62,070 nt of DNA from Deltaproteobacteria bacterium (GCA_019312665.1 JAFDCZ010000002.1:1-62070), one strand, 5' to 3'. Counted from the first letter of the stretch, positions 14,039 to 54,184 are shown. Translations and numbers: made by a program. The notes: generated by a model not told the origin, from the letters alone.

Positions 14039-14086
14039 TCCGGCTGGCCCATTTCCGGGTAGTACCAGGAGTGGGATGCTGCTGGA

Positions 14087-21366: not shown

Positions 21367-21382
21367 GTCAACGAGCGGGGAC

Positions 21383-22297: not shown

Positions 22298-22387
22298 GGC
22301 GTTTCCTCCATTCGAGGGTATGACGGTAGCGCGTCTGGCCCTGCCGGGCAGGGAACGGAGAGCGCGCCCTGCCTGCCTCGCCCGAAA

Positions 22388-24004: not shown

Positions 24005-24006
24005 CT

Positions 24007-24912
24007 CTACTTCTCCTCAGTACGGTAGTCGCCGAATTTTTCGTCACGCTCCTGGAGCGCACCCGTCAGCTTCCCCTTGCCGGGGCCGATCTTGTTGATG
24101 AACTCGTGAAAGCTGGGCTGGTGGGTGGCAAGGGTGCAGAGTTCCGTGCCCTGGCGAATGCCAGCCCGGAAACCCATCGCATCCATCTGGCGATGCACCG
24201 CTCGTTTGTTCAGCTGGACGATATCCGGCGGCAACGCCGCCATCCGCTCGGCCATCTCGAGGGTCTTGGCTTCGAGCTCTTCGGCCGGAAAGACCCGGGT
24301 GGCCCACCCCCGTTTCTCCGCCTCGATGCCGTTGATCGAATCGCCGGTAAGCATCATCTCCATGCCCTTGCGCATGCCGACGAGCCAGGCGTGGAATTGC
24401 ATGTCCGGCACGCCGAAGCGCACGGCCGGGTAACCCATCTGAGCATCCTCGGCCATGTAAATGACATCGCAACCGGTGGCGAGTTCACTGCCTCCGGCCA
24501 GGCAATAGCCGTGTACCTGCGCGATCACCGGCTTCGAGAGATCCCAGATCGACATCCAACCTTCGGTGACATGGCGTGGCCATTGGCCTTCGCCGCCGGC
24601 CGTGAAGAAGGGGTACTCGAGGCCTTCGTTACCTCCGCCCAGATCGTACCCGGCGGAGAAACTCGGCCCGGCACCCCGAACGATCATCACATGGATGTCT
24701 GCATCCTGGTCTCCCTGCTGCAAGGCATGGAGCACCTGGCCGCGCAGGGCGTGGTTGAGGGCGTTGCGCTTTTCCGGGCGGTTCATCGTGATGCGCCGGA
24801 CGTGAGGTGCCGGATCGTCGACGAGGACGACGGTGTAGTCCGAGGCGGATTCGGGCTGGCTCACATTCGCGTTGCGGTCGGCGTAGGGATTGGCGTTGGT
24901 TTCGCTGTTCAT
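24007..24912 (-). CDS. Enoyl-CoA hydratase/isomerase family protein
   Basis: NRPEKRNAL, FSAGYDL, KPVIAQVHGYCLAGG. GGAGG before ATG 24912. Confidence 0.9.
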   Translation of the reverse strand: MNSETNANPYADRNANVSQPESASDYTVVLVDDPAPHVRRITMNRPEKRNALNHALRGQVLHALQQGDQDADIHVMIVRGAGPSFSAGYDLGGGNEGLEYPFFTAGGEGQWPRHVTEGWMSIWDLSKPVIAQVHGYCLAGGSELATGCDVIYMAEDAQMGYPAVRFGVPDMQFHAWLVGMRKGMEMMLTGDSINGIEAEKRGWATRVFPAEELEAKTLEMAERMAALPPDIVQLNKRAVHRQMDAMGFRAGIRQGTELCTLATHQPSFHEFINKIGPGKGKLTGALQERDEKFGDYRTEEK

Positions 24913-24988
24913 TTTTCCTCCGAGGCGATCGATTGCACTCGACCCCTTCGGTGCTGTCAAGATGCCACGTCCGGCGTACTCTTCCAGA

Positions 24989-25624
24989 ATGCGCTCGGAT
25001 GCCATCGACCAGCTCCTGAGCAGCTATCTCAAGCAGCCGGTCCGGTTGAGCTGGAAAGGCGCCGCCTCGGACGCCATCCGGGGGACTTTCGAACGGCCGC
25101 GGGTAGAGCTGGGCGGGCTGGCGACCGCGTGGGTGCCCTTCGAAGAGGTCGTGCTGGATGCCGACCGGGTGACCTTCCGTCCAGGTGTGCCTGCACGCCT
25201 GGGGATCGAGACGCCTCGCATCGAACTGGCGGTGGGGCAAGGCGAAATCGACAAATGGATGAGCCGCCTGCAGCTCCCGTTCCGTCTGGTGCTGGAAGAA
25301 ACCTCCCTGATCGTGAAGACGAGGATCGCTGGCTTCCCGGTCGGCGAACTCGAAGCCAGGCTCGACATCGTCGGCGGCTGGTTCGTGTTGAAGCCCCGCC
25401 GCGCCTCGATCCTTGGCATCCCGGGCGCCCTTGCGCCTCTCTTCCGAACCTACCTTCCGCTGCCTCCCCTCCCACGAGATGCGCGCTTGATCGCCATCGA
25501 CCACGAGCCGGGCCTGCTTCGCCTGACCCTCGAAGCGGACGATTTCGAAGAGCGGATCACTCCGGGCCTCGTGAGTCGCCTGCAAAAGCGGATGATGCCT
25601 GGCACAGGTTTCGGGCCGTCATGA
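24989..25624 (+). CDS. Hypothetical protein (possible LmeA/DUF2993-like lipid-binding fold)
   Basis: Coding-like ORF filling the gap; beta-rich pattern; TACTCT 6 nt before ATG 24989. Family call is weak. Confidence 0.55.
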   Translation: MRSDAIDQLLSSYLKQPVRLSWKGAASDAIRGTFERPRVELGGLATAWVPFEEVVLDADRVTFRPGVPARLGIETPRIELAVGQGEIDKWMSRLQLPFRLVLEETSLIVKTRIAGFPVGELEARLDIVGGWFVLKPRRASILGIPGALAPLFRTYLPLPPLPRDARLIAIDHEPGLLRLTLEADDFEERITPGLVSRLQKRMMPGTGFGPS

Positions 25625-36422: not shown

Positions 36423-36898
36423 TGAGCCACACCCACCTGGGCAGCCGCGGAGGTTTCACGCTCCTCGAGATCATGATCGTCGTGGCGATCATCGGCATTC
36501 TTGCTGCCATCAGTAGCCAACAATACACGGTGTATATCGATCGGGTGCGGGTCACCGAGGCGATCATCGACATTCGCGGTTTCCAGAGCGAGATCAGAAC
36601 CCAGGAGGTCACGGACGGCGTGACTCCCGGCTCGCTGGCGGCTGCGGGGATTGGCGCGCCACTGGATCCTTGGGGAAACCCTTATCAGTACCTGAAGATC
36701 AAACGACCTCCCGGGCCGGGCGTGAACATCGGCCAGGCGCGAAAAGACAGGTTCCTGGTCCCGATCAACACGTCCTTCGACCTCTACAGCATGGGCAAGG
36801 ACGGTCAGACCCGGGCGCCGCTCAACCCCCCGGTGAGCCGCGACGACGTGGTCCGCGCCAATGATGGATCGTTCATCGGGCTGGCGGAACGTTACTGA
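36419..36898 (+). CDS. Prepilin-type (GspG-like) pseudopilin
   Basis: G|FTLLEIMIVVAIIGILAAI cleavage/methylation motif; DPWGNPYQY; FDLYSMGKDG...DDV. Confidence 0.88.
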   Translation: MMSHTHLGSRGGFTLLEIMIVVAIIGILAAISSQQYTVYIDRVRVTEAIIDIRGFQSEIRTQEVTDGVTPGSLAAAGIGAPLDPWGNPYQYLKIKRPPGPGVNIGQARKDRFLVPINTSFDLYSMGKDGQTRAPLNPPVSRDDVVRANDGSFIGLAERY

Positions 36899-36910
36899 GC
36901 CAGAGGCTCG

Positions 36911-37756
36911 TCAAGCCGCCTTCTTCGTCTCGGCCTTGAGCTTGTCGACGCAGGGCTCGCAAAGCCCATGGGTGAACTGGGCGTCCGAGTTCTTTTCGAC
37001 GAAGAGCTCGAGCTGGTTCCAGTAGCCCTGGTCGTCGCGGATGCTCTTGCATTGGGCACAGATCGGCAGCAAGCCCGAGAGGGATTGAACACGCGAGACG
37101 AGATGCATGGCGCGGAAGAGCACGAGGAGAGTGGCCAGGATTCCGCCGGTGGCGAGCATTCCAACGAGAACGATGGCGCGGCTCTCCTCCTTGCCGAGGC
37201 GTGTCAGCTCGGCCCGCGCACGCGCCGAGCCCTGAGCCAACACCTCCTCGAGAGCCACCTGGAAACCCGCGCTTGCGGCTTCTGCCGCCGAAGCCCGGGC
37301 CCTGGCTTCGGCTCGATCCCCAGCGGCCAGGGCGGAGAACACTTCCCTCGCCCGATCCGCGTAGAGGTTGTGAGCGGCATCCAGCTTCGCGACCGGTGAG
37401 AGCAGCTCCGCCGCCTCTCCCTCCGCCGGTGCGGAAGAGAGGAGCGCGCTCACCTCCTGCAGGCCGTCCCAGATCGCCGCCGCTCGCGCCTCGAAGCGAC
37501 GTTCGCCCTGGGAGGGGCCCACCTCAGGGCGCTGCTCCCAGAGGGCCCTTTCGAGCGCTGCAGTCTGTTGCAGATGGCCGGCTGCCACCTGCCCGAGGGT
37601 CTCGCTGACCTCGAGCTCCAACATCGCCGCCGCCTGGCTACGCCGTGCGACCTGGTCCAGCGCCCAGATCGAAACCCCGGAAGAGGCTGAGCCGAGCAGC
37701 GTCGCGCCAATGAGCAGCGCGATGATCCGGTCTTTGAGCGATAACTGATGGAACAT
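36911..37756 (-). CDS. Two-TM four-helix-bundle sensor with a C-terminal Cys/His-rich domain
   Basis: TM-helical-TM topology; LLPICAQCKSIRDDQGYW...FTHGLCEPC. Confidence 0.75.
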   Translation of the reverse strand: MFHQLSLKDRIIALLIGATLLGSASSGVSIWALDQVARRSQAAAMLELEVSETLGQVAAGHLQQTAALERALWEQRPEVGPSQGERRFEARAAAIWDGLQEVSALLSSAPAEGEAAELLSPVAKLDAAHNLYADRAREVFSALAAGDRAEARARASAAEAASAGFQVALEEVLAQGSARARAELTRLGKEESRAIVLVGMLATGGILATLLVLFRAMHLVSRVQSLSGLLPICAQCKSIRDDQGYWNQLELFVEKNSDAQFTHGLCEPCVDKLKAETKKAA

Positions 37757-37769
37757 GACACAAGTGATA

Positions 37770-37782
37770 GACGCATTGCGTC
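37770..37782. promoter_or_regulatory. Palindromic operator in an AT-rich promoter region
   Basis: GACGCA-T-TGCGTC lies between TTGACT and the ATG at 37756 (minus strand). Confidence 0.45.
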
Positions 37783-37904
37783 AAAAGTCAACTCGTGATT
37801 TTTCGTAGTATTTCCAACAGATTACGCGGAACCAACCATCAGAGAATCCAGCATGCGTCAGAAGGCCCCGCGGGGATACTTCTCGAGCAGCTCAACGGTG
37901 GGGT

Positions 37905-40900
37905 CTACCAGGTATCGATGCAAGGGCGTTTCTTGCCGGTTCGAGGCACTGGCGGCGGGGCCGAGCGGAGGGCACGCATCACCCAGGTTCGGGATTCTGC
38001 CGGGTCGATGACATCGTCGATCTCGAAGGTCGACGCGGTGTTGAGAGCCTTCCCGTGCTCGTACATGCGGGCGACCATCTCGTCGTAGAGCGCACGGCGC
38101 TTGTCGGGATCTTCTTCGGCGGCCAGCTCCTTGCGGAAGCCGAGCTTCACCGCACCTTCGAGGCCCATTCCTCCGAACTCGCCCGTGGGCCAGGCCACCG
38201 TGAAGACACCGGCCTTGAAGCTGCCACCCGCCATCGCCTGGGCGCCCAGGCCATAGCCTTTGCGCAGGACGATCGTGAAGAAGGGCACGCTCACGCTGGC
38301 CGCGGTCACGAACATGCGGCTCGCGTGGCGAACCAGGGCCGTCTTCTCTGCTTCGGGCCCGACCATGATGCCGGGCGTGTCGCAAAGAAACAGGATCGGC
38401 AGATCGAATGCATCACAGAGCTGCATGAATCGCGCGGCCTTGTCGGCACCATCGCTATCGATGGCACCCGCCAGATGGGTCGGGTTGTTCGCGATGATGC
38501 CGAGCGGGCGACCCTCCACCCGCGCCAGAGCCGTGACCATGCCGGCGCCGAAGCCCCGGCGTATCTCGAGCACCGAGCCCGTGTCGGCCATGGTCTCGAT
38601 GACCTCGCGCACATCGTAGATGCGCAGCCGGTTCTCCGGAATCGCGCTGCGTAGCAGGCGCTGATCGGCACACTCCCACTCGGCCAGCGGACCCTGGAAA
38701 TAGGAGAGGTACTGCTTGGCCACCTGCACGGCCTCGGCTTCATCGACAACGGGGATGTCGACCACCCCGCTCGGCACCTGGTCGGACATCGGGCCGACTT
38801 CCTCGGGTCGGAACACACCGAGGCCGCCGCCTTCGATCATCGCCGGGCCCCCCATTCCGATGTTCGAACCCTCGGTCGCAATCACGACATCGCAGCAGCC
38901 CAGAAGCGCTGCGTTGCCCGCAAAACAACGCCCCGACGTGATGCCCACCAGCGGCACGAGCCCCGACAAACGCGCAAAGAAATGGAAGGCCATGCAATCG
39001 AGACCCGCCACGCCTATTCCGTCCGTATCGCCGGGCCGGCCGCCTCCGCCTTCCGTCAGGAAGACCAGCGGGATCCGCAGGCTCTCGGCCAGCTCGAACA
39101 TGCGGTCCTTCTTGCGGTGGTTCTGCAGGCCCTGGGTGCCGGCCAGCACGGTGTAGTCGTAGGAGAGGGCCACGCAGCGCGAGGCCTGCTCCCCGAAGTG
39201 ATCGCCGTTCACGCTGCCGATGCCCGCCACCATGCCGTCTGCCGGGGTGCGTCGAATCAGATCCTCGAGGCTTCGCCGACGGCGCTGGGCCGCGATGACG
39301 ACCGCGCCGTACTCGACGAAGGAACCCGGATCGCAGAGATCCTCCACGTTCTCGCGCGCGGTTCGCTGCCCGGTCTTGCGCCGGCGAGCCACCGCCTCGG
39401 GGCGCGCCGGATCGAGACCCAACGCGTGGCGCTCCTGGATCTCGGCCAGATCCGGACGCACGTGATCGAGATCGATGGCTTCCGGTTCCTCACCGGCCTC
39501 GCGATCGACCTCGGCTTCTTCGAGGAACAGAAGCGGGTGGCCCTCCAGGACCGTGTCCCCCGGAGCGACCGCCAGGGCCCGTACGATTCCGCTGCGGTCG
39601 GCTGCGATGACGTGCTCCATCTTCATCGCCTCCATCACCAGCAGCGGTTGGTCGCGGGCGATGGCGTCACCGACGGCGACATCCACGCTGACGATGGTGC
39701 CCTGGAGAGGCGCGGGCACAGGCTGGGTGCCCGGCGGTCCAGCGGCCAACGGCGCGGGCCCAACCGGGGCACCGCCAGCTTGACTCACGGCGACAGGCAC
39801 CCCCTTGCCATGCTCCAGCACGGCCAGGGGGTCGTTGCTTTCGAGACGAACGCCAGCGTGCCCGGTTTCGGCCACTTGGCGTGGAGACGTGGTCGTGGGT
39901 ATCGCGGCCAACAGTTCCGGAAGGTGGGCTTCGACGAAGCGCGTCGTCACCCGGTTCGCGCGGACATCGGGATGCGCCAACAGGCTTCGAAGCAGTGGCA
40001 GATTGGTGCGCACACCTTCGATCCGGAACTCGCCCAACCCGCGAAGAGCTCTCGCGACGACTGCGTCGAAATCTCCCGAAGGGGAATGAGCAACGAGCTT
40101 CGCCAGCAGCGAATCGAAACGTGGGTTCGTGGCGTAGCCAGCGTAGCCGTAGCCATCCACCCGGATGCCCGGGCCCGCAGGCGGTTCATAGACCGCCAGC
40201 ACACCTCCCGATGGCCGCACGCTGCCATCCTCGGCGAGCGTCTCCAGGTTGACCCGCGCCTGGAGCGCGAAGCCGCGGGGCGTGGGCACCTCTTCCTGAC
40301 GAAGCTTCAAGTCTGCCAGGCTTGCGCCACCGGCGATGCGAAGCTGGGCGGCCACGAGATCCACCCCGGTCACCTCTTCGGTCACGGTATGCTCCACCTG
40401 CAGCCTGGGGTTGGCTTCGATGAATGCCCATTCGTCCTCCGCGTCCAACAGGAACTCGAAGGTGCCAAGGCTGCGGTAGCCGACCTCCCGGGCCATGCGG
40501 ACCGCGGCCTCGGCCAGTTGGGCGCGCACCGATTCCGGGAGCGTCGGACTCGGGGCGATCTCGATCAGCTTCTGGTGCCGCCGCTGCAGGCTGCACTCGC
40601 GTTCGCCGAGTTGCGCGATACCACCCTGCCCGTCCCCGATGATCTGGATCTCGAGATGGCGCGCAACGGGCACCAGGCATTCGACGTAGAGAGCATCGTT
40701 GCCGAACGCCGCACCGGCCTCGGATGCGCAGCGCGCCCACGCTGCCTCCAGGGCTTCCGGGCTGTGCGCGGGACGCATCCCTCGACCCCCTCCCCCGGCA
40801 AGCGCCTTGATCATGACCTTTCCACCCTCACCGAACGAAGCCAGGAACGCCTGCGCCTCCTCCAAGCGGGTCGGGCCGCGGGTCCCGGCCAGGACGGGAA

Positions 40901-41273
40901 CGCCGCAGCGCTCGGCCAATGCACGCGCCGCCGTCTTGTCGCCAAGCGCGCGCAGGGTTTCCGGCCGCGGGCCGACCCAGGTGATGCCCGCGTCTTCGCA
41001 GGCTTGCGCAAGCTCGGGGCTCTCGCTCAGCAACCCATAACCAGGGTGGAGTGCGTCGCAGCCGGTCTCGTGTGCCGCGGCGACGAGGGCCTCGGCATCC
41101 AGGTATGCTGCTGGCCCGGCCCCCGACAGCGTGTGCGTTTCATCGGCCAGGCGCAGGTGAAAGCTCGCCGCGTCGTCCGGTGACGCGATCGCGACCGCCT
41201 CGATCCCGAGTTCCCCGGCGGCCCGGAGCACGCGCACGGCGACTTCGCCGCGATTCGCGACCAGGAGCTTCAC
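37905..41273 (-). CDS. Single-chain acyl-CoA carboxylase (biotin carboxylase-BCCP-carboxyltransferase fusion)
   Basis: ANRGE, HPGYG, RECSLQRRHQK, NPRLQVEH (BC); EAMKM biotin site; YDYTVLAGTQG and DTPGIMVG (CT). Confidence 0.93.
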   Translation of the reverse strand: MKLLVANRGEVAVRVLRAAGELGIEAVAIASPDDAASFHLRLADETHTLSGAGPAAYLDAEALVAAAHETGCDALHPGYGLLSESPELAQACEDAGITWVGPRPETLRALGDKTAARALAERCGVPVLAGTRGPTRLEEAQAFLASFGEGGKVMIKALAGGGGRGMRPAHSPEALEAAWARCASEAGAAFGNDALYVECLVPVARHLEIQIIGDGQGGIAQLGERECSLQRRHQKLIEIAPSPTLPESVRAQLAEAAVRMAREVGYRSLGTFEFLLDAEDEWAFIEANPRLQVEHTVTEEVTGVDLVAAQLRIAGGASLADLKLRQEEVPTPRGFALQARVNLETLAEDGSVRPSGGVLAVYEPPAGPGIRVDGYGYAGYATNPRFDSLLAKLVAHSPSGDFDAVVARALRGLGEFRIEGVRTNLPLLRSLLAHPDVRANRVTTRFVEAHLPELLAAIPTTTSPRQVAETGHAGVRLESNDPLAVLEHGKGVPVAVSQAGGAPVGPAPLAAGPPGTQPVPAPLQGTIVSVDVAVGDAIARDQPLLVMEAMKMEHVIAADRSGIVRALAVAPGDTVLEGHPLLFLEEAEVDREAGEEPEAIDLDHVRPDLAEIQERHALGLDPARPEAVARRRKTGQRTARENVEDLCDPGSFVEYGAVVIAAQRRRRSLEDLIRRTPADGMVAGIGSVNGDHFGEQASRCVALSYDYTVLAGTQGLQNHRKKDRMFELAESLRIPLVFLTEGGGGRPGDTDGIGVAGLDCMAFHFFARLSGLVPLVGITSGRCFAGNAALLGCCDVVIATEGSNIGMGGPAMIEGGGLGVFRPEEVGPMSDQVPSGVVDIPVVDEAEAVQVAKQYLSYFQGPLAEWECADQRLLRSAIPENRLRIYDVREVIETMADTGSVLEIRRGFGAGMVTALARVEGRPLGIIANNPTHLAGAIDSDGADKAARFMQLCDAFDLPILFLCDTPGIMVGPEAEKTALVRHASRMFVTAASVSVPFFTIVLRKGYGLGAQAMAGGSFKAGVFTVAWPTGEFGGMGLEGAVKLGFRKELAAEEDPDKRRALYDEMVARMYEHGKALNTASTFEIDDVIDPAESRTWVMRALRSAPPPVPRTGKKRPCIDTW

Positions 41274-41285
41274 GATGCTAGGCCG

Positions 41286-42155
41286 TCACGCCTTGGCGTC
41301 ACGCCGTTTGTTCATCAGCGCGATGATCGGCGAAGGCTCGGCAGGATGCCATTTCGTCTGCTTGGGATCCTCGTGCCAGACGAAGGGCAGATGTTCCACG
41401 GTGCCGGGTTCCTGGGCCGACTCGAAGAGGCTGAGGGCCGCGCGCAGAACGCTCCCCTGGGTCTCGCGGTCGCCCACATCACCGAAGGGCCGCCCAAACG
41501 GATGCTCGATCGCCGCGACCCGCGGCATGCCGATGGCCCGCTGAAGCGGCCACAACATGTTCAGTGTCACGGTCGGGATGCCCCGTGCCTCGATCTCTCG
41601 TGCGACCAGCCCCACGGACCGGCAACAATCGGGTCAGACCGGCGTGAGGAGCGCAAGGTCGACCTCCTCGCTGAGCATGGCCTCCGCGATCTCCGGGGCA
41701 CTCTTCTCGACCAGGGTGCTGGAATCGCTGCCCTGGAAGCCCATGATCGAGTAGTGGCTCTCGGCGCTCGCGCCGACCTTGCCCTCGTCCACGAGCTCGC
41801 GAAGCCGATCGACCGGAAGCGACACGTTCAGATCTCGCTCGACGTAGCCCGTATCGATGTGCAGATGGTTCGCCTCGATCCCTGCTCCCGTCGCGTCGGA
41901 ACGCAACCGCCGCCAGCTCGAATCGCCCCGGGTCGGATGCTGACGCTCGTACTCCATGTCGAAGGGGACGTCGCCCTTCATCGAGAGCCCCGATGTCGAC
42001 AGGAGCGAAACTTTCGATTCGGCAAGGGGCTTGGTCGCCGGCGTCCACGGGATCGGCGGGTGATTCGCCTGCTCCGGAATCCCTCGGGAGAGGATCTTCT
42101 CGAGGAACGAGCCGGTGAATCGCCAGGGGTCGACTTCGCGTTGGGAATCACTCAT
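41286..42155 (-). CDS. PrdB/GrdB-family (proline/glycine reductase selenoprotein B-like) selenoprotein, Sec at UGA 41634-41636, 289 aa
   Basis: Two track ORFs are in the same frame and separated only by a TGA and five codons: ...VDLALLTPV-U-PDCCRSVGLVAREIEARGIPTV.... The N-half has the PrdB-type motifs KPLAESKVSLLSTSG, GDSSWR and DLNVSLPVDRLREL. A SECIS-like hairpin follows the TGA. Confidence 0.9.
41591..41633 (-). other. Bacterial SECIS-like element
   Basis: After UGA: CCCGAU-UGU-U-GCCGGUCC-GUG-GGGCUGGU-C-GCA-CGAGAG-AUCG. The 8-bp upper stem has a G-initiated apical loop 18 nt after UGA. Confidence 0.7.
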
Positions 42156-42228
42156 CGCCAGAAGCTAACACGGCGCCGTCCGATCCGTCCCAGACCTCCG
42201 ACTTCCGCCAGCGGCTCGTCGGTGACGG

Positions 42229-42675
42229 CTACGTGAGGATGGAGATGGCCGAGGTCACGGCCATCCAGACCGTGATCCCGAAGCCAATCGACCAGACCGC
42301 CGTGCGATGGGGCATCAACCCCTTCATGTAGGCGACGAGATGCAAGATGCGTCCGATCGGAAAGCCCGCGAAGCAGATCCACAATCCGAGGGTGCTCGGC
42401 TGGGTCAGGGCGTAGATGAGGCCCACCAGCACGAAAGGCAGCCCCGCTTCCAGATCGTTCAGATGCACGCGCCGCGCGCGCTCGACTTGATCATCCGTAG
42501 CCGTCTGCGGCTCGAGCTTCTGCAACTCGTAGTCCTCGGGCGAGCTGAAGACGTTCTTTCGGATTCGGATCGAACTGACGAGCATGCCCGTGGCAAGCGT
42601 CTTGAGTGCGACCACGATGGACGAAAGGGCCCAGGCCTTGATGGCGGCGTTCGAGAGAAACTCTTCCAAGAGCAT
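42229..42675 (-). CDS. MAPEG family membrane protein (microsomal GST-like)
   Basis: FSSPED, VERARRVHLNDLE, GRILH. GGAGG SD and TGcTAGCGT extended -10. Confidence 0.9.
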   Translation of the reverse strand: MLLEEFLSNAAIKAWALSSIVVALKTLATGMLVSSIRIRKNVFSSPEDYELQKLEPQTATDDQVERARRVHLNDLEAGLPFVLVGLIYALTQPSTLGLWICFAGFPIGRILHLVAYMKGLMPHRTAVWSIGFGITVWMAVTSAISILT

Positions 42676-42776
42676 GGCTTCCTCCTGCTGGAGGCGACGC
42701 TAGCACGGGCTCCCGAGACAGGAGGGCCCTGGGGCATTGGGTAAACCTCGCCCCCGATCCTGCCGATCAGGAGGCC

Positions 42777-43558
42777 ATGGAGCATTCCCCCGAGCGGCGC
42801 CGAGAGCCTCGCTTGGCCGTAGACGCGGATGTGTGGATTCTGGGCTGGACCGGCCTGAGGAGAGGCCGCCTGGGCGACGCTTCCTCGGCCTCTCTCGGAA
42901 TCGCGCTTCGAGGACGCGCGCCTGCGCGGGGCACTCGCGTTCTGGTCTTCCTGCCCACCCCCCGGAAGCTCCGATGGCCCGCCGTTCTTCTGGCCCGGGT
43001 CGTGCATCGGGATGAGAACCTGGGCGTGGCGTTCACCTCGATTCCCCGAGGCGCCCGACCGTGGCTCCGGAGATTGATCGAGAGCGCCAGCCCTGGAGAC
43101 ACCCGTGGCGCGGCGGAACGGATCGTACCCGAGAACGCCGAGACGATCGGCGACAATACGAGGAACGCCTGACGGCCCTCTCCGATCGGACCCCGCATCT
43201 GCTGGTTGCCCGCGACCTCTCGGCCGAAGGCCTCCGGGTGGATCTCCTCCACTGGGCCGAAATCGGTAGCGAGCTGCGCATCTCGTTCCCGGTGCCCGGA
43301 GCCGGCCCGCCGATCGCGGTTGCCGCGCGCGTGGCGCGACACGATGGCGCCCACGGAACCCTTCTGCGCTTCGAAGCCATCGTACCGGAACAGCGCGACG
43401 CCATCGGGCGCCTTCTCACGCTGCTCCACCCCCTCCCCGATGGACGTCGGGAAGGGGTTGCCCTCGCTGAAGTGGCCTGGCGTCAGGCCGTCGGCGCGGC
43501 CTGCGGACCGCGTACGAGCCCGCCGGGCAATGCACCGGTCGGCTCGCCGTCCTCGTAG
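42777..43558 (+). pseudogene. Tandem PilZ protein split by a frameshift (~43085-43125)
   Basis: Frame 1: ERRREPR...DASSAS...ARVVH...LGVAF. Frame 2: ERRDDRR...DLSAEG...ARVAR...LLRF. The second frame has no SD. Confidence 0.6.
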
Positions 43559-45198
43559 ATGATCTCACCGTTCTTGATGGTGTAGCGGTAGCCGTCGACC
43601 TTCTGGATCAGGCGACGTCCGTTGGCGGGCAGGTCGTAGACCATCTCCGGTGCGTGCAGATGCAGAGCGTCGAAATCGATCAGGTTCACGTCGGCACGCA
43701 TCCCGGGTGCGAGCGTTCCGCGATCCTCCATCCCGTAGAACGCGGCGGTGCGGCGCGTCTGGCGTTCCACCACGACCTCGAGCGGAATCCGCTCGCCGCG
43801 CTTCCGGTCGCGCACCCAATGTGTGAGCAGGAAACTGGGCATGCTGGCATCGCAGATCAGACCGCAATGAGCACCACCATCCGAGAGTCCGAATACGGAA
43901 TTCTCGTGAAGCATCATCTGCCGGATCGGCTCCAGATCGCCGTTCGCGTAGCCAAGCAACGGCATGTAGATGAAGCCACCGGCGAGCATGAGGTCGTAGG
44001 CCACTTCATCGGGGCTGCAGCCTTTGCGTTTCGCGATGGCCGCCAGGCTCTGGTCCGGTGCCGGTTCGTATTCCGGCGGATCGCCCAGGGGAAACATCAT
44101 CTGCCAGGCACCTGCGATCACGGCCGTGATCGCAGGCAGGCCCACGAGATTCGGCTCATCCGCCAGAATGGCTTCGCGCACGGCCGGCTCCGCCAGCTTT
44201 CGAAGCCTCTCCTCACGCGGGAGCGCGGCATGGGCCGCGAAAGCCTTGCGCAGCATGAAGGGGTGGAAGCTGCTCTCGAAGCCGAGCAGCATGCCCGCCG
44301 GCCGTTGCGCCACCTGGGGTGTCAGGTGGCCGCCTTCGGCCCGATCCTCGTCGACCACCGCCAGGAGTCGTTTCCATTGATCGGGATCGGCCGGGCTTTG
44401 GAGACAAGCAAAGGTCACCGGACGACCGGTCTCTTTGCCGAGCTGGCGCATCCAGCGCAGCTCGTCGCCTTCGGGCGCGAGATCGCTCGCCACCTCGAAC
44501 ACGCCATGCCCCACTTCACCTAGCATGCGGCCGATGCCGAGCACTTCTTCGTCCTCGGCGGTGGTACCGGGAACCAGTTCGCCGTCCTTGGCCCGATGCA
44601 ATAGCGTCCGGGAAGTCGAGAAGCCGAGGGCGCCAGCCTCGAGACCTTCCTTCACGATCGCCGCCATTTCGGCGATCTCCCCGCTCGTCGCCTTCTCGTT
44701 CTTCGCACCGCGCTCGCCCATCACATAGGCGCGCACCGCACCGTGGGGAACCTGGGCCGCCACGTCGATTGCGCGGGGAATCTTCTCCACGGCGTCCAGG
44801 TACTCGGGAAAGCTCTCCCACGACCAGTCGATGCCTTCCGCCAAGGCCGTGCCCGGGATGTCCTCGACTCCCTCCATCAACTGAATCAGGAAATCCTGTT
44901 GGCCCGGTCGCACCGGCGCAAAGCCGACGCCACAATTTCCCATGACGAGGGTCGTCACACCGTTCCAGCCCGAGGGCGTGAGATAAGGATCCCAGGTCAC
45001 CTGGCCGTCGTAGTGGGTATGGATGTCGACCCAGCCGGGCGTGACGAGCAAGCCTGTGGCGTCGATCTCGCGCTTGGCGGGGCCGACGTCGTTGCCAACC
45101 GCGACGATGCGATCACCTTGGATGGCCACGTCGGCCTGGCGCGCCTCGGCGCCTGTGCCATCTACGACGGTGCCACCGCGAATCACGAGATCATGCAT
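43483..45198 (-). CDS. N-acyl-D-amino-acid deacylase family amidohydrolase (paralog of 17914-19671)
   Basis: [33 protein letters not shown]. Confidence 0.9.
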
Positions 45199-45262
45199 CA
45201 GAACCTCCTCTGCCTTCGGGATGGGCCGACCCTATCACAGCAGAGATCCGCCCACTCAGATG

Positions 45263-47425
45263 TCAATCGGCGGCTTCGATCCTGACCGGGACGCCGTTGA
45301 AGACGGCATTTCCCACCACGGGCTCCAGAACCGCATCATCGACGAGATCGTTGCAAGACACACCGGGATGGGCCTCGGCCACGGCCATGCGCAGGCCCGG
45401 GCCGTGATGCCCCCAGCCATGAGGCAAGCTCACGACACCGGGCATGAGGTCGGAGGAGAGCTCGAGAGGTGCCTCGATCTTCCCGACGCGACTCGAGATG
45501 CGCACGGTCTGTTCATCCGCGAGGCCGAGCTTGGAAGCGTCGTCCGGGTGCATCAGCAAGGTGCAGCGCTCCCGGCCCTTCGTTCCAACCCGCGTGTTGT
45601 GGATCCAGGTGTTGCAGGTACGAACGTCGCGGCGTCCGATCAAGCGGAAGCTCTCCTGTTCGGAAGGCGCTGCCAGCTCATTGGCCAACCTCGTGAGTTC
45701 ATCGCGCATCGCAGTCGGCGCCAGGTCGATGCGGCCATCCGGGGTACACAGGATCCTGTCAAGGCCGGGCCCGAGAGGCCCGAAATCGATGCCGCTCGGG
45801 CTGGCCTCGAGATCGCGCAGGCGAAGTCCGCTCCGCCAGGGGCGGAAACCATCTCCGTGGGGGCCCGCACGCAGGGCCAGATCGAGCAACGTACGGACGC
45901 TCGGAACACGACCTCGAAGGAGTCCGAGCGCGAACTTTCGCAACGCGCCACCCTTGCGCGCGCCGAGGCGCAAGCCGAGTTCCGCCAGCAGTTCGAAATC
46001 ATCGAGCTGGCCCGGCTCGGGTGAGAGCGCCGCCGGTGAGAACTTTGCGGTGTTGCGAATGGCGAAGCCATGGAACAGCGCTTCGTAGTTGTCGTGTTCC
46101 AGCGACCAGCTCGGCGGCAGGATGAGATCCGCGTGCCGGGTCGTCTCGTTCAGGTAGAAATCGACAGCGGCGTAGAACGAGAGGCCTTGCATGGCTCGGC
46201 CGAGGCGGGCGCCGTTCGGTGCGCTCAGCACAGGGTTCCCCGCGACCGTGATCAACCCGCGAACCTGGCCTTGACCTGGCGCCTCGATCTCCTCGGCAAG
46301 ACAGGCCGTGGGCATGTCCCCGTTGAAGATAGGCGCGCCGCGCACGCGGGTCCTGCCCGTGTTGAGCTCCCCCGTACCCCCCTGAGCAGAAATCATTCCT
46401 GCCAGGTCCAAAGCAGGATGCGGAAACATCGCACCGCCCACTCGATCGAGATTGCCCGTCAACAGGTTGAGGACATCGACCAGCCAACTGTTGAGTGTGC
46501 CGAAGGGATGGACACAGGTTCCAATGCGGCCGTAGCAAACGGCTGAAGGCGCGGCCGCGAAAGCCCGCGCCAGCGCGCGGACCCGGCCCGCATCGATCCC
46601 GAGGGTCGCTTCGACGGCCTCGGGGGCGAAGGGCGCGAGCGTTTCTGCAAGCGCCTCCCTTCCATCCGTGCGGGCGCCGGCGGGGCTCTCCCTGCCCAGT
46701 TTCTCGTCCAGCACCGTATGAACCAGCGCCGCGAGCAACCAACCGTCGGCACCCGGGCGAATGAACCAATGCTCGTCCGCGAGCTTGGCGGTCTCGCTGC
46801 GCCGCGGGTCGACCACGACCAGGCGACCGCCGCGCTCCTGGAGCCGGCGGATCGTTCCAGAGAAGCGCGGTGCAGACATCAGGCTTCCGCCGGAAACCAC
46901 CGGATTGGCGCCTAGCATCAACATGAACGAGGTGCGTTCCACGTCGGGAATCGGCAAGTGCAGCCAGTGCCCGAAGAGCAGCAAGGACGAGGCGTGCTTC
47001 GGGTTCTGATCGAGAGAGCTCGCCGAGTAGCGGCTGCGCGTGCCAAGCGCCCTGGTGAAGGGTGTAAGCCCGAACAGAATCCCGAAGCTATGGGCCGCGG
47101 GGTTTCCGACGTAGAGGGCGACCGCGTCGTCGCCATGCTTGCGCTGGATTCCCGCGATTCGCTCGGCGGTTTCCTCGAGCGCTGCTTCCCAGGAGATCTC
47201 CTCCCAATCCGCACCTCGCCGGCGGAGCGGCTTCTTCAACCGGTCCGGATCGTTCTGGATCTCGCCGAGAGCAATGGCCTTGGGGCAAAGCGCGCCGCGA
47301 CTGTAGGGATCGTCCGGATCCCCCTCGATGCGCTTGATTTCGCAGCCCTGCACCTCGATTCGCAGCCCGCACATGGCCTCGCAGAGGTTGCAGGTCTTGT
47401 GCACGATCCGAGCGGCTTCCCTCAC
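45263..47425 (-). CDS. Molybdopterin (bis-MGD) oxidoreductase catalytic subunit
   Basis: N-terminal CNLCEAMC...C [4Fe-4S] motif; NETTRHADLILP; C-terminal MHPDDA...SLPHGWG. No Tat signal. Confidence 0.9.
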   Translation of the reverse strand: MREAARIVHKTCNLCEAMCGLRIEVQGCEIKRIEGDPDDPYSRGALCPKAIALGEIQNDPDRLKKPLRRRGADWEEISWEAALEETAERIAGIQRKHGDDAVALYVGNPAAHSFGILFGLTPFTRALGTRSRYSASSLDQNPKHASSLLLFGHWLHLPIPDVERTSFMLMLGANPVVSGGSLMSAPRFSGTIRRLQERGGRLVVVDPRRSETAKLADEHWFIRPGADGWLLAALVHTVLDEKLGRESPAGARTDGREALAETLAPFAPEAVEATLGIDAGRVRALARAFAAAPSAVCYGRIGTCVHPFGTLNSWLVDVLNLLTGNLDRVGGAMFPHPALDLAGMISAQGGTGELNTGRTRVRGAPIFNGDMPTACLAEEIEAPGQGQVRGLITVAGNPVLSAPNGARLGRAMQGLSFYAAVDFYLNETTRHADLILPPSWSLEHDNYEALFHGFAIRNTAKFSPAALSPEPGQLDDFELLAELGLRLGARKGGALRKFALGLLRGRVPSVRTLLDLALRAGPHGDGFRPWRSGLRLRDLEASPSGIDFGPLGPGLDRILCTPDGRIDLAPTAMRDELTRLANELAAPSEQESFRLIGRRDVRTCNTWIHNTRVGTKGRERCTLLMHPDDASKLGLADEQTVRISSRVGKIEAPLELSSDLMPGVVSLPHGWGHHGPGLRMAVAEAHPGVSCNDLVDDAVLEPVVGNAVFNGVPVRIEAAD

Positions 47426-47485
47426 GATCCCAGGCTAGCAGGACCCCACCCAAGCGAGGCATGCTCCCCCGCGGAGGAAACCACC

Positions 47486-48622
47486 ATGCCCGAGTTCCAG
47501 CCCTTCCAGATCTCCGCCAGCGACGAGCAGCTCGACGATCTCCGTCGTCGCCTCCAGAACACCCGTTGGCCGGAGGCGGAGACTCCCGATGATTGGTCCC
47601 AGGGCATCCCCCTGGCCTACACCCAGGAAGTCTGCGCGTACTGGGCCGAAAAATATGACTGGCGTGCACGCGAAACTCGCCTCAACCGGTTCGAGCAATT
47701 CAAGACCGGAATCGACGGCCTGGACATCCATTTCGTTCACGTGCGGTCGCCTCATGAGAACGCGTTGCCGCTCGTCATCACCCACGGTTGGCCCGGCTCG
47801 ATCGTGGAGTTCCAGAAAGTCATCGAGCCGCTGACGAACCCGACCGCCCACGGCGGGGACGCCGCCGATGCCTTCCATGTCGTCTGCCCCTCGCTCCCGG
47901 GCTTCGGTTTCTCGGACAAGCCAACCGGGCCGGGCTGGGGCATTCCAAGAATCGCCGCAGCCTGGGCCGAGCTGATGCCGAAACTCGGCTACCCGAGCTA
48001 TGTCGCCCAGGGCGGCGACTGGGGCGCGATGGTCACGACCGCAATCGGCATGCAGGACCCGGAGAATTGCCGTGGCATCCACCTGAACATGCCGATCGTC
48101 GCTCCGGACCCGGAGACGATGTCGGAACTCACCGAGCAGGAACAAAGCGCGCTCGCAGGAATGCAGCACTACCAGGACAAGGATTCGGGCTACTCGAAGC
48201 AGCAGAGCACTCGGCCTCAGACCCTTGGCTACGGGCTCACGGATTCTCCCGCCGGCCAGGCCGCTTGGATCCTCGAGAAGTTCTGGTCATGGACGGATTG
48301 CGATGGCCATCCCGAGAACGCCCTCACCCGGGACGAGATGCTCGACAACGTGATGCTTTACTGGCTCCCCGCGACGGCTGCATCCTCCGCCCGTCTGTAC
48401 TGGGAAAGCTTCAACCAGGTCAGCATGGATCCCATAGGGATCCCGGTCGGCTGCACGATCTTCCCAAAGGAAATCTTCCGCTGCTCCCGCCGCTGGGCCG
48501 AGAAACGCTTCACGAATCTCATCCACTGGAACGAGCCCGAACGCGGAGGCCACTTCGCCGCCTTCGAACAACCCGCAACCTTCGTCGAGGAACTGCGAAC
48601 CTGCTTCCGCTCCCTCCGCTAA
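47486..48622 (+). CDS. Epoxide hydrolase (microsomal/EHN type)
   Basis: LDDLRRRL..TRWP, THGWPGS, QGGDWG, GGHFAAFEQP. GGAGG SD. Confidence 0.93.
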   Translation: MPEFQPFQISASDEQLDDLRRRLQNTRWPEAETPDDWSQGIPLAYTQEVCAYWAEKYDWRARETRLNRFEQFKTGIDGLDIHFVHVRSPHENALPLVITHGWPGSIVEFQKVIEPLTNPTAHGGDAADAFHVVCPSLPGFGFSDKPTGPGWGIPRIAAAWAELMPKLGYPSYVAQGGDWGAMVTTAIGMQDPENCRGIHLNMPIVAPDPETMSELTEQEQSALAGMQHYQDKDSGYSKQQSTRPQTLGYGLTDSPAGQAAWILEKFWSWTDCDGHPENALTRDEMLDNVMLYWLPATAASSARLYWESFNQVSMDPIGIPVGCTIFPKEIFRCSRRWAEKRFTNLIHWNEPERGGHFAAFEQPATFVEELRTCFRSLR

Positions 48623-48665
48623 ACAAGTAAATTCTAAACTCCGTCCCCGCTGGTTTACTTGTTTA
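48620..48665. repeat. Perfect 12-bp AT-rich inverted repeat spanning both convergent stop codons
   Basis: TAAACAAGTAAA (48620-48631) and TTTACTTGTTTA (48654-48665) with a 22-nt spacer. Confidence 0.85.
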
Positions 48666-50678: not shown

Positions 50679-51836
50679 ATGACGCATCCCCTCGACCCCG
50701 ACGCCCTGCTCTCCGATGCACGGAAGGCATCCAGCCTCTCCGATTTCGGAGAGCCTTCCTTCCATTTGCCCATGGAGCGCCTTTGCAGCGCACTCCGGAA
50801 GGAAGCCCGGCTCAACGAGGTGGGGCTCGCCACCCAGAGGCAACGAATCCTCGACATCCTGGTCACGCGGCTGCGTGTCGAAGCCTTCTTCGCCGAACAG
50901 CCGGAAATCGCTGATGAGAAGATTGGTGCGCCGCTCGTCATCTGCGGGCTGCCCCGCACGGGCACCACCCTGCTGCATCGCGTACTGGCCGAAGATCCAG
51001 GGTTCGACGCCGCCCTCTGGTACGAGGTCCGGTATCCGGCGCCGTTCTCCGGCTGGGAGCCCGGACGGCCCGACGCGCGGATTTCGGCCGCTAAAGAAGA
51101 GGTGCGGATGACCCTCGAGCTGGCACCGGAGCTGATGGCGATCCATCCGTTCGATGCCACGAGTCCGGACGAGGAAATCATGCTCCTCGAGCATTCATTC
51201 TTCAGCCGTACGCCGGAATCCTTCTGCCACCTGCCTGAATTCTCGGCTTGGCTCGACGAGCAGGACCAGCTCCCGGGCTACCGCTATCTGCTTCGCCTGC
51301 TTCAATTCTTGCAGTGGCAGCATCGACAGGAAGGGCGGGCACGGGATCGCTGGGTCCTGAAGGCGCCCCATCACCTGGGCTTCCTTCCCGAGCTATTCAC
51401 GGTGTTTCCGGACGCCACGGTGATCCAGACTCACCGCGACCCGACGCACTCGATCGCCTCGATCTGCAGCCTCTGCTTCCACCTGGAGACGATGGGCAGC
51501 GACGACCCGGACCCGAAGGCCACGGGCGCCCACTGGAGCGCTGGCTGGGCGAGCTACCTGAACCGCGCCATGGCCTACCGGGATGCCGGCCACCAGGAAC
51601 ACTTCATCGACGTCGACTTCCTGGATACCGTGCGCGACCCGATCGCCTGCGTGGAGCGGATCTACGCCGCCCTCGGACGTGAACTCACGCCCATCGCGGA
51701 AGGGCAGATGCGCGCTTGGACCGAGCAGAATGCGCGCGAGAAACGCGCCGCGCATACCTACAGCCTGGAGCAGTTCGGCCTCAGCGAAGCCGGGGTTGCC
51801 CGCGACTTTGCAAGCTACCGCGCCCGATTCTGCTGA
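50679..51836 (+). CDS. Sulfotransferase family protein
   Basis: PAPS loop GLPRTGTT; WVLKAPHH; THRDP. Confidence 0.9.
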   Translation: MTHPLDPDALLSDARKASSLSDFGEPSFHLPMERLCSALRKEARLNEVGLATQRQRILDILVTRLRVEAFFAEQPEIADEKIGAPLVICGLPRTGTTLLHRVLAEDPGFDAALWYEVRYPAPFSGWEPGRPDARISAAKEEVRMTLELAPELMAIHPFDATSPDEEIMLLEHSFFSRTPESFCHLPEFSAWLDEQDQLPGYRYLLRLLQFLQWQHRQEGRARDRWVLKAPHHLGFLPELFTVFPDATVIQTHRDPTHSIASICSLCFHLETMGSDDPDPKATGAHWSAGWASYLNRAMAYRDAGHQEHFIDVDFLDTVRDPIACVERIYAALGRELTPIAEGQMRAWTEQNAREKRAAHTYSLEQFGLSEAGVARDFASYRARFC

Positions 51837-51877
51837 GCCTCACTGCCCGGCGCTGGCCTCGCACGAACCGGACGCGC

Positions 51878-52900
51878 CTAGCATCCGGCCAGCCGATAGA
51901 CTCGCGCCGCGGTGCCATGGAAGAGCATCCGTTTCTCGTCCTCGGTGAAGCCCCGAGCCACTCGCTTGAAGGCGTTCCAAAGCACCCGGTAGGAGCAGGA
52001 GATCTTGTCGACCGGGAAATTGCTTTCGAACATGCAGCGCTCCGGCCGGAAAGCCTCGATGGTTGCAAGGGTGTAGGGGCGAATCGCTTCCGAGAGTTCC
52101 TCGCTTCCAGGCGGCCGGGGGCGTTCGTGCCAGCCGAAGCCATTCAACGGCATCTGCAGACCGCCGATCTTCACGAACACATTCGAGCAGGCCGCCAAAG
52201 CCTCGATGCTGCGGCGCCAATCGGCAAAGACCTCCTCGCGCCGGCCCGCGTAGGGCCCGATGCCCAGCGGGCCACCGAAGTGATCGAGCACGATCGTCGT
52301 TTCGGGAAAGGCCTGGGCCAGATCGACCAGCTCGGGAATCTGCGGATGGTAGAGCCAGGCATCGAAAGAAAGGCCCAGCTCCCCGAGATGGGCAAAGCCC
52401 TTCCGGAAGGTTGCATCCGCCAGGAGCCCAGAGGGCGGCGCCGTATGCGAGTTGCCAATCTCGGGGCTCGCATCCCAGCCGCTGGCGTGGCGGATGCCCC
52501 GGAAATGATCCGGGCTGGCACGAAGATGCGCCTCCAGCACAGCACGCGCAGCATCGCCGAGCTCGAGATCGACGTGGCCGACGATGCCCGCGGCGGCTCG
52601 AAGCGGGCCGTAGAGCCCGCTCGCGGATTGCGCCGCGACCCCCGTTGCGAACTCGGTCTCTCCCACTGGCCGCATCGCCTCGGGCCCATCCGCCCGATAC
52701 ATCGCCACGCAATCGACGAAGACCGTGCTCACGATCCGGTGCCCGCTCTCCACGTCTTCGCGTAGCTCGTCGAAAAGGTAGCGCTCCATCCGACGCGTCC
52801 GATCCCAGAGGTGGTGGTGGGCGTCGCAGATCTCGATCTCCGGCTCGAGCACCTCTTCGTCTACCTCGTCGATCGGGTCCAGCCGGTCTCGATGCTCCAT
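51878..52900 (-). CDS. Amidohydrolase_2 family protein
   Basis: DAHHHLWD, LDHFGGP, RCMFESNFPVD, HGTAARVY. Confidence 0.9.
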   Translation of the reverse strand: MEHRDRLDPIDEVDEEVLEPEIEICDAHHHLWDRTRRMERYLFDELREDVESGHRIVSTVFVDCVAMYRADGPEAMRPVGETEFATGVAAQSASGLYGPLRAAAGIVGHVDLELGDAARAVLEAHLRASPDHFRGIRHASGWDASPEIGNSHTAPPSGLLADATFRKGFAHLGELGLSFDAWLYHPQIPELVDLAQAFPETTIVLDHFGGPLGIGPYAGRREEVFADWRRSIEALAACSNVFVKIGGLQMPLNGFGWHERPRPPGSEELSEAIRPYTLATIEAFRPERCMFESNFPVDKISCSYRVLWNAFKRVARGFTEDEKRMLFHGTAARVYRLAGC

Positions 52901-52906
52901 CTACCG

Positions 52907-52916
52907 ATGCTAGCCT
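52907..52916. promoter_or_regulatory. Bidirectional -10 promoter
   Basis: Bottom TAGCAT (52912-52907) lies 6 nt before ATG 52900. Top TGcTAGCCT (52908-52916) shares the TA. Confidence 0.6.
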
Positions 52917-52948
52917 GTCATGCTGCCGAAACGGCTGAGGAGGATGCG

Positions 52949-54184
52949 ATGATCGAGTGGAGCGAACAGCACGAAATGATCCGGGACGCGGTGCGCCGAT
53001 TCATCGAAGAGGAGATCGTTCCGAATCTCGAGGAACTCGAGCACGGCGATCTCCCGCCCTACGAGATCCTGCGCAAGATGTACGCCACCTTCGGCATGGA
53101 CGAGATGGCACGCGGCCGCTTCGAGCGGCAGATTGCGAAGGCCGAGGCGGGCGACGCCAAGGAGAAGAAAGCCCGCGAGGGGGATGGCACTGGCGACGGC
53201 GCTGCCATGCAGCTGATCCCGATCATCGAGCTCTGCCGCTACTGCCCTGGCATGGTGACGGCCCTCGGCGTTTCGGTCGGCCTCACGGGTGCTGCGATCA
53301 TGTCGAAGGGTTCCGTCGAGCAGAAGAAGCGCTGGGGCCTCGACGTGCTCACGCTCACGAAGATCGGCGCCTGGGCGATCACCGAACCGGGCTCCGGCTC
53401 GGATGCCTTCGGTGGCATGAAGGCCTCGGCCCGCCGCGAAGGCGACGAGTTCGTGCTGAACGGCAGCAAGACCTTCATCACGAACGGTCCCTTCGCCGAC
53501 ACGATCGTCTTCATCTGCAAACTCGAAGAAGAAGGCGTCGACTCGAGGGATCGGAAGATCCTGAATTTCGTACTCGATCGGGGCATGAAAGGCCTCGATC
53601 AAGGCAAGCCCCTCCGAAAGATGGGCTTGCACTCCTCACCAACCGGCGAGCTCTTCGTCAACGACCTTCGTTGCAGCATCGATCATCTCCTCGGCGGCGA
53701 GGACGCTCTGAACAAGAGCCACGGTGCCGGCCGCGAAGGCGCCAAGGACACCTTCCAGACCGAGCGCTCCGGCGTCGCGGCAATGGCCCTCGGGATCGTC
53801 TCCCGCTGCCTCGAACTCTCGGTCGCCTACTCCCGAGAGCGGGTGCAATGGGAAAAGCCGATCGGCGAGTATCAGTTGATCCAGGAAAAGCTCGCGCGCA
53901 TGGAGGTTGCGCGAATGAACCTCCAGAACCTCGTGTTCCGTACCATCGAGCTCTCCGCCCACGGCAAGAGCATGGGGCTGGCCGAAGCCTCGGCAATGAA
54001 GCTCTACGCGGCCCGCGCTGCGGTCGAGGTGGCGATGGAGGCCGTACAGGTCTTCGGCGGCAACGGTTACATGGCGGAGTACCACGTGGAGCAGCTCGCC
54101 CGGGATGCGAAGGTGCTGCAGATCTACGCGGGAACGGACGAAATCCAGATCCGTGCGATCGCTCGTGACTTGCTGACCGGCTGA
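52949..54184 (+). CDS. Acyl-CoA dehydrogenase
   Basis: AITEPGSGSDA, NGSKTFITNG, FGGNGY, IYAGTDEIQ. GAGGAGG SD. Confidence 0.93.
   Translation: MIEWSEQHEMIRDAVRRFIEEEIVPNLEELEHGDLPPYEILRKMYATFGMDEMARGRFERQIAKAEAGDAKEKKAREGDGTGDGAAMQLIPIIELCRYCPGMVTALGVSVGLTGAAIMSKGSVEQKKRWGLDVLTLTKIGAWAITEPGSGSDAFGGMKASARREGDEFVLNGSKTFITNGPFADTIVFICKLEEEGVDSRDRKILNFVLDRGMKGLDQGKPLRKMGLHSSPTGELFVNDLRCSIDHLLGGEDALNKSHGAGREGAKDTFQTERSGVAAMALGIVSRCLELSVAYSRERVQWEKPIGEYQLIQEKLARMEVARMNLQNLVFRTIELSAHGKSMGLAEASAMKLYAARAAVEVAMEAVQVFGGNGYMAEYHVEQLARDAKVLQIYAGTDEIQIRAIARDLLTG

Follow-up and report, generated by a model that had tools for sequence, protein, structure and literature searches.

In D-proline reductase, the selenocysteine (Sec) of the PrdB protein attacks the alpha-carbon of D-proline, which is bound to the pyruvoyl group of PrdA, and the PrdB of Clostridioides difficile is a protein of 25.7 kDa with its Sec at residue 151 (PMC11229817). 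Outside the clostridia, marine surveys have since 2005 listed a family with a UxxC motif under the name 'Proline reductase PrdB' (PMC1088965, Tables 1-3; PMC2398784). A 'proline reductase' selenoprotein, possibly of the same subfamily, also appears in a table for Anaeromyxobacter dehalogenans (PMC1794560). According to the available parts of these surveys, the family accounts for 42 Sec genes in the Sargasso Sea, being the third most abundant family there (PMC1088965), and for 235 Sec and 110 Cys sequences in the Global Ocean Sampling data (PMC2398784, Table 2). A 2026 review, in its accessible text, gives only the function of the clostridial enzyme (PMC13188914). The name 'PrdB-like' that we use here was not found in the literature searched, and from 2015 on we found nothing on the function of stand-alone PrdB forms. 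In this study we analyse a PrdB-like selenoprotein gene in a stretch of 62,070 nucleotides from Deltaproteobacteria bacterium (GCA_019312665.1, JAFDCZ010000002.1:1-62070; hereafter the window). The window is one contig (C297) of a 5.3 Mb genome, which is 90.1% complete in 392 contigs with about 65% G+C. The original prediction proposed that this gene, a MAPEG gene upstream and a single-chain acyl-CoA carboxylase gene downstream constitute a new system. Our analysis makes it quite probable that the gene instead encodes a stand-alone UxxC Sec enzyme, whose position beside the carboxylase and MAPEG genes is specific to one genus and is not a conserved system.

The coordinates, the common minus-strand orientation of the three genes and the 12-bp spacer proposed for the locus are all exact on the sequence; the MAPEG gene and the selenoprotein gene are separated by 73 bp. 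The features of the locus are as follows.

42675-42229, minus strand: MAPEG-family membrane protein, 148 aa (PF01124, 87.2 bits against a cut-off of 23.4, residues 17-143)
42155-41286, minus strand: PrdB-like selenoprotein gene, 289 aa, ATG start at 42155 and TGA stop at 41288-41286 (translated with TGA as U)
41636-41634, minus strand: in-frame TGA, predicted Sec codon 174 in the motif TPV-U-PDCC (from the alignment column of the relatives)
41626-41602, minus strand: SECIS-like hairpin, columns 11-35 counted from the U of UGA, inside the codons C-R-S-V-G-L-V (from RNAalifold and codon constraint)
41285-41274, minus strand: spacer of 12 nt from the selenoprotein stop to the carboxylase start (from the sequence)
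41273-37905, minus strand: single-chain carboxylase resembling long-chain acyl-CoA carboxylase (LCC type), biotin-dependent, 1122 aa, starting with GTG, with biotin carboxylase, biotin carboxyl carrier and carboxyltransferase parts (BC-BCCP-CT; from Pfam and 4rcn_A)

The TGA at codon 174 almost certainly encodes Sec, as the comparison of relatives indicates. A search of 185,579 species genomes yields 203 relatives, of which the best 80 loci were kept; one of them (L061) was left out of the alignment with no start codon found, and 79 resolved loci remain. Full-length identity of the relatives ranges from 87% to 44%. In 78 of the 79 the TGA stands at the same alignment column, and in the remaining one (L091) the column holds Cys, with the flanking sequence conserved on both sides; in the window gene the motif reads TPV-U-PDCC-RSVGLVAR. 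Cys also occurs naturally at the TGA column in two database proteins, P0117 and P0119. Furthermore, of 76 family matches in 41 related genomes, 74 have one or more internal TGA codons. The genome also has the machinery for Sec: a tRNA-SeC on contig C142, and matches to selB, selA and selD that exceed the respective cut-offs, with 276.8, 510.2 and 354.6 bits. The selD match (G000:C351:22732-23658, L012) itself has one in-frame TGA, and the selenophosphate synthetase is thus probably a selenoprotein as well.

A stem-loop of the bacterial selenocysteine insertion sequence (SECIS) type is expected just downstream of a UGA that is read as Sec. RNAalifold on 35 sequences of the UPDCC type yields a shared hairpin with 9 base pairs that spans +11 to +35 relative to the UGA, including a compensatory change of one pair from G-C to A-U in 4 sequences; the 9 rows of a second clade with the motif U-P-Q-C-Q (L083-L093) were left out of this alignment. 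That clade also has an N-terminus about 20 aa longer. The codon usage over the 70 loci with a UPxCC motif points in the same direction. The Gly codon in the hairpin is GGA in 66 loci and GGG in the other 4, while GGC and GGT do not occur, although the G+C content at third codon positions (GC3) is near 0.8. The Arg codon (CGG in 61, CGA in 5) pairs with the Leu codon (CTG in 63, TTG in 5), with CGA and TTG covarying in 5 loci. Meanwhile, the Val codon in the loop uses all four synonyms. Since the Gly, Arg and Leu codons are restricted while the loop codon is free, the constraint acts at the RNA level.

The alternative that the TGA is a true stop, leaving two small genes or a decaying pseudogene, draws on the public gene calls, which end at the TGA, and on the database homologs, most of which are N-terminal fragments of 169-188 aa ending at the same place. 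Against this, the reading frame after the TGA is conserved in the 78 relatives above, homologs carry Cys at the column, the constrained hairpin follows the TGA, GC3 is 0.82-0.83 on either side of it, the Sec machinery is present, and an AlphaFold2 model made with 58 sequences shows the full-length protein as one alpha/beta domain with a mean predicted local distance difference test score (pLDDT) of 93.9. We regard a true stop as extremely improbable.

On the whole, the window gene, as judged from its sequence, belongs to a large, long-catalogued and biochemically uncharacterised family related to PrdB, and its gene call is correct. The match to PF07355 (GRDB) reaches 33.5 bits, where the cut-off is 22, and covers only the model positions 214-345, that is, the C-terminal third of the model. 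The NCBIfam profile TIGR04483 (PrdB) matches residues 33-261 with 149.2 bits (E 1.2e-43), below its equivalog cut-off of 300. The GrdB profiles give 62.9 bits against 602.2 (TIGR01917) and 61.7 against 65.45 (TIGR01918), and both cut-offs are missed. With the motif U-P-D-C, the PF07355 match and the existence of Cys forms, the gene has the features by which the environmental PrdB-like UxxC family is recognised. In the protein atlas the natural Cys homolog P0117 leads only to 'GRDB family' clusters, which offer no hint of function. By profile search, the family is found in 32 of the 41 related genomes, with 1-5 scattered copies each. The window's own genome has two paralogs identified by tblastn, each with a TGA at the same column: one (L126, G000:C18:~17934-18719, plus strand) is 34% identical with the motif VPA-U-PLDH, and the other (L127, G000:C168:~13443-14240, plus strand) is 31% identical with the motif VPL-U-PVCH.

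These profile matches also bear on whether the protein could be subunit B of a classical D-proline or glycine/betaine/sarcosine reductase with its partner genes located elsewhere, perhaps in the 10% of the genome that is not assembled. It is true that TIGR04483 is the top NCBIfam match, that PF07355 is above its cut-off and that the genome is only 90% complete. However, the scores stay far below the equivalog cut-offs (149 against 300 bits for TIGR04483 and 63 against 602 for TIGR01917), and the three paralogs in this genome, with 1-5 scattered copies in related ones, also speak against it. The partners are not seen either: neither PF09338 (GrdE/PrdA) nor PF04723 (GrdA) has a match in the 90.1%-complete genome, with the limit that neither has a match in 14 control genomes, so that there is no positive control. 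The Pfam scan of the 47 window open reading frames (ORFs) reveals no Prd, Grd or thioredoxin family, in agreement with what had been claimed for the window, and no Grd or Prd component is found by Pfam among 55 co-oriented immediate neighbours from the relatives' 80 loci, nor around the two paralogs. In addition, the genome has 5 matches to COX1 (haem-copper oxidase), consistent with aerobic respiration, which also stands against a classical subunit. The host had been called an aerobe from two O2-dependent enzymes in the window, of which the PhyH dioxygenase is confirmed, while the supposed AlkB is a 760-aa protein with an FA_desaturase-type domain; the aerobic reading itself fits the COX1 matches. 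Taken together, a classical subunit is highly improbable, and the proposal of a Sec protein standing alone, outside any Stickland reductase complex, is supported by the missing GrdE/PrdA and GrdA matches, the neighbours without Grd or Prd genes and the oxidase genes. This status was already reported for the family.

The proposed three-gene system fares differently when the synteny is compared. By tblastn of the window genes, the carboxylase adjoins the selenoprotein gene in only 3 of the 80 relatives' loci (L016, L017 and L041), and MAPEG is nearby in 2 (L016 and L017). The available flank is at least 1 kb downstream in 74 of the 79 resolved loci and at least 1 kb upstream in 71. Even in these loci the order varies: in L016 and L017 an enoyl-CoA hydratase (ECH) gene lies between MAPEG and the selenoprotein gene, in L017 about 750 bp separate the selenoprotein and carboxylase genes, and in L041 no MAPEG was found. 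From the side of the carboxylase, 20 essentially full-length ortholog loci (L096-L115, with L110 cut at the contig end) are found in the 41 related genomes, and a PrdB-like gene is located upstream in all 5 loci of the window's genus and in 0 of the 15 loci of other genera. The carboxylase flanks vary by genus, with MFS, short-chain dehydrogenase/reductase (SDR), ECH or acyl-CoA dehydrogenase (ACAD) genes and no fixed neighbour. Ortholog-level copies of the PrdB-like gene (at least 460 bits in the profile search) are present in 16 of the 41 genomes. Outside the window's genus, 8 genomes hold both orthologs, and the two are adjacent in none of them, being on different contigs or 60 kb apart. 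A quick tree, supported by the SH-aLRT test (Shimodaira-Hasegawa-like approximate likelihood ratio) only, groups the carboxylase-linked rows of the window, L016 and L017 together, with L041 nearby. The order of MAPEG, selenoprotein and carboxylase is thus, in the genomes compared, peculiar to one genus and not a conserved functional system. The neighbourhoods of homologs had been named by the original prediction as its own check, with a lack of conserved synteny as refutation, and this lack is what we find.

The three genes may still be co-transcribed within the genus. In its fuller form, the alternative is that MAPEG, selenoprotein and carboxylase make one co-transcribed module, in which C-N or C-S cleavage or thiol chemistry by the Sec enzyme would feed or repair an acyl-CoA substrate of the carboxylase. 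The co-orientation and the short gaps, the pair of selenoprotein and carboxylase genes in each of the 5 genomes of the genus, and the CoA-related genes among the close neighbours of relatives (8 of 62, see below) speak for it. It has against it the 3 and 2 of 80 loci, the 0 of 15 carboxylase loci, the 0 of 8 genomes outside the genus and the variable order inside it; moreover, acyl-CoA genes are dense in these genomes, and such neighbours are expected by chance. We consider the module unlikely. A scan of 36800-47700 speaks neither for nor against it: no promoter-like site is seen, and the 6 terminator-like sites compare with 5.4 in shuffled sequence. As a separate observation, a frame scan shows that the selenoprotein and carboxylase ORFs (37908-42164, minus strand) share one reading frame, with the TGA stop and four codons between them. 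A read-through fusion of the two was considered and rejected, since the stop codons of the relatives L016 and L041 are TAA and TAG; the shared frame is thus not conserved and looks like chance.

We then present the neighbourhoods of the whole family, where no partner gene is conserved across clades among the compared loci, and the same is true for the two Sec-containing paralogs. Clustering of 415 neighbouring ORFs (at most 3 per side, from the 80 loci) gives as the largest cluster a luciferase-like monooxygenase, with 18 ORFs in 13 of the 80 loci at mixed positions and orientations, followed by P450 (8), SDR (7) and ECH (5). Within 200 bp there are 62 co-oriented neighbours. Pfam was run on 55 of them, excluding 2 carboxylases, 1 DUF748 protein that had already been scanned and 4 ORFs shorter than 100 aa, and the 55 belong to many unrelated families. 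The neighbour sets follow small clades in the quick tree. The most consistent clade-level neighbourhood seen belongs to a gammaproteobacterial clade (L076, L078-L081), in which, in all 5 loci, a divergent luciferase-like monooxygenase gene lies upstream of the family gene and one resembling isopropylmalate synthase lies downstream. Beside the paralog on contig C168, a co-oriented 326-aa ORF with a C-terminal Rieske-type motif CPH...CPWH (L127:12376-13356, plus strand) ends about 85 bp before the paralog; it was weighed as a candidate redox partner and rejected, as the adjacency occurs in 3 of 16 loci only, all in the same genus.

Enzymes acting on CoA thioesters form 8 of the 62 close co-oriented neighbours, namely 2 carboxylases, 2 ECH, 2 CoA-transferases III (CoA_transf_3) and 2 acyl-CoA synthetases, and they occur in different clades. 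In addition, glutathione S-transferase (GST), GFA and MAPEG genes are neighbours in three lineages. Together with the pair kept in 5 genomes, these are weak hints of another possibility, that the PrdB-like family consists of reductases acting on lipid or xenobiotic intermediates activated as CoA thioesters or conjugated with glutathione, and that in this genus the enzyme is co-expressed with the carboxylase and a membrane GST-like protein in one lineage-specific pathway. In such an enzyme the thioester carbonyl would replace the pyruvoyl-iminium in activating the alpha-carbon for attack by Sec. We find this quite unlikely. The window alone illustrates how readily CoA neighbours could arise by chance, because besides the carboxylase its 62 kb hold, at 19750-25005 and 52811-54184, further genes of acyl-CoA metabolism: two for AMP-binding acyl-CoA synthetases and one each for an SDR, an ECH and an ACAD. 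An apparent enrichment of CoA enzymes near the selenoprotein over three distance bins (ECH 6/0/0, luciferase-like monooxygenase 9/2/1) was rejected, for the queries were drawn from the neighbours themselves and the loci are related.

Returning to the stand-alone Sec enzyme, the structural model places Sec174 between a strand (167-171) and a helix (175-190), and the first turn of this helix carries Cys177 and Cys178. About 40 alignment columns are invariant, many of them polar, including D62, D66, E70, D78, R82, H97, H99, T102, D108, Q141, R186, E189, R212 and R222. So many invariant polar residues suggest an enzyme with a defined pocket rather than a generic redox carrier. Foldseek finds no match in the PDB at E <= 0.001, and a wide fold search with VIA-align gives only generic alpha/beta folds (LacI-type, SDR and similar), the best with Z 8.5 and none standing out. 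Sequence searches of the PDB, with both the protein and the alignment profile, find no relative, and the PDB copy searched has no member of the PrdB/GrdB superfamily. The protein is probably a cytoplasmic, single-domain alpha/beta selenoprotein that works without the pyruvoyl (PrdA/GrdE) and GrdA partners. Its UGA-174 is almost certainly read as Sec with the help of the downstream hairpin and of SelA, SelB, SelD and tRNA-Sec. By analogy with PrdB, Sec174 would be the catalytic nucleophile, attacking an electrophilic carbon or other centre of a small-molecule substrate; Cys177 might then resolve the adduct of Sec174 to a selenenylsulfide, which cellular thiol systems would reduce again.

Some of our results weigh against this explanation. 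The hairpin of the main clade is not seen in single-sequence folds of the 9 loci of the UPQCQ clade. The missing matches to GrdE/PrdA and GrdA come, as said, from searches with no positive control. The selenenylsulfide cycle and its thiol reductant are inferred from the motif and the classical enzymes. To these can be added the 8 CoA-thioester enzymes found in different clades, as well as the selenoprotein-carboxylase pair, which none of the 5 genomes of the genus lacks and which in 4 of them has a spacer of only about 12-25 bp, so that local co-transcription or a lineage-specific link is possible there.

For the neighbouring proteins of the window, the MAPEG domain spans nearly the whole 148-aa protein, which has no NCBIfam match. 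The carboxylase shows the Pfam order Biotin_carb_N, CPSase_L_D2, Biotin_carb_C, Biotin_lipoyl and Carboxyl_trans, and its translation contains an EAMKM stretch. Its closest solved relative is 4rcn_A, a long-chain acyl-CoA carboxylase, matched with 1140 bits in two stretches. The genes around the locus are listed below.

47425-45263, minus strand: molybdopterin oxidoreductase (from Pfam)
45198-43483, minus strand: Amidohydro_3 protein (from Pfam)
43429-42767, minus strand: 220-aa protein without a Pfam family
37756-36911, minus strand: 281-aa protein with no clear family

Further upstream, two stretches of 1.2-1.4 kb (47426-48654 and 50794-52170) have no confident gene call in the GC3-based ORF selection, and two candidate ORFs there (47435-48169, minus strand, and 47788-48630, plus strand) have no Pfam match.

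In ocean metagenomes this is one of the most abundant families of selenoproteins, and databases still split its genes at the UGA. A conserved partner could have served as a lead to what the family does; none is offered by this locus, because the link to carboxylase and MAPEG is confined to a single genus. What the locus does provide is a clean model of the full-length gene, a defined SECIS hairpin, a fold predicted with confidence in which Sec174 sits at the N-terminus of a helix, and evidence that the neighbourhoods of the family change from clade to clade. The reading of the protein as stand-alone and non-Stickland is supported but already known, and the reading of the locus as a new system is not supported.

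Finally, we compare the locus with the systems already described. From the environmental PrdB UxxC family (Zhang, Fomenko & Gladyshev 2005; Zhang & Gladyshev 2008) nothing essential differs: pfam07355, the UxxC motif and the predominance of Sec over fewer Cys forms are shared, and the occurrence of that family in oxic samples fits the window gene likewise. The motif here is specifically U-P-D-C-C, in a host with three paralogs. The surveys filed the family under the name of the clostridial enzyme, and their accessible text contains no analysis of neighbourhoods or partners. Compared with the GrdB/GrdF/GrdH proteins, the window protein likewise matches Pfam GRDB above the cut-off, but it has 289 aa instead of about 430, scores 63 against 602 with TIGR01917 and has no GrdA found in its genome. 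The carboxylase has the same domain order as LCC (PDB 4rcn) and matches 4rcn_A with 1140 bits, but differs in being tied to a selenoprotein, in one genus only. With clostridial PrdB (Clostridium sticklandii and Clostridioides difficile) the window protein shares homology over residues 33-261 and the Sec followed by a Cys three residues on; it differs in scoring 149 against 300 bits, in its length of 289 aa with Sec174, in having no prd operon or PrdA family found beside it, and in a host that carries genes of aerobic respiration.

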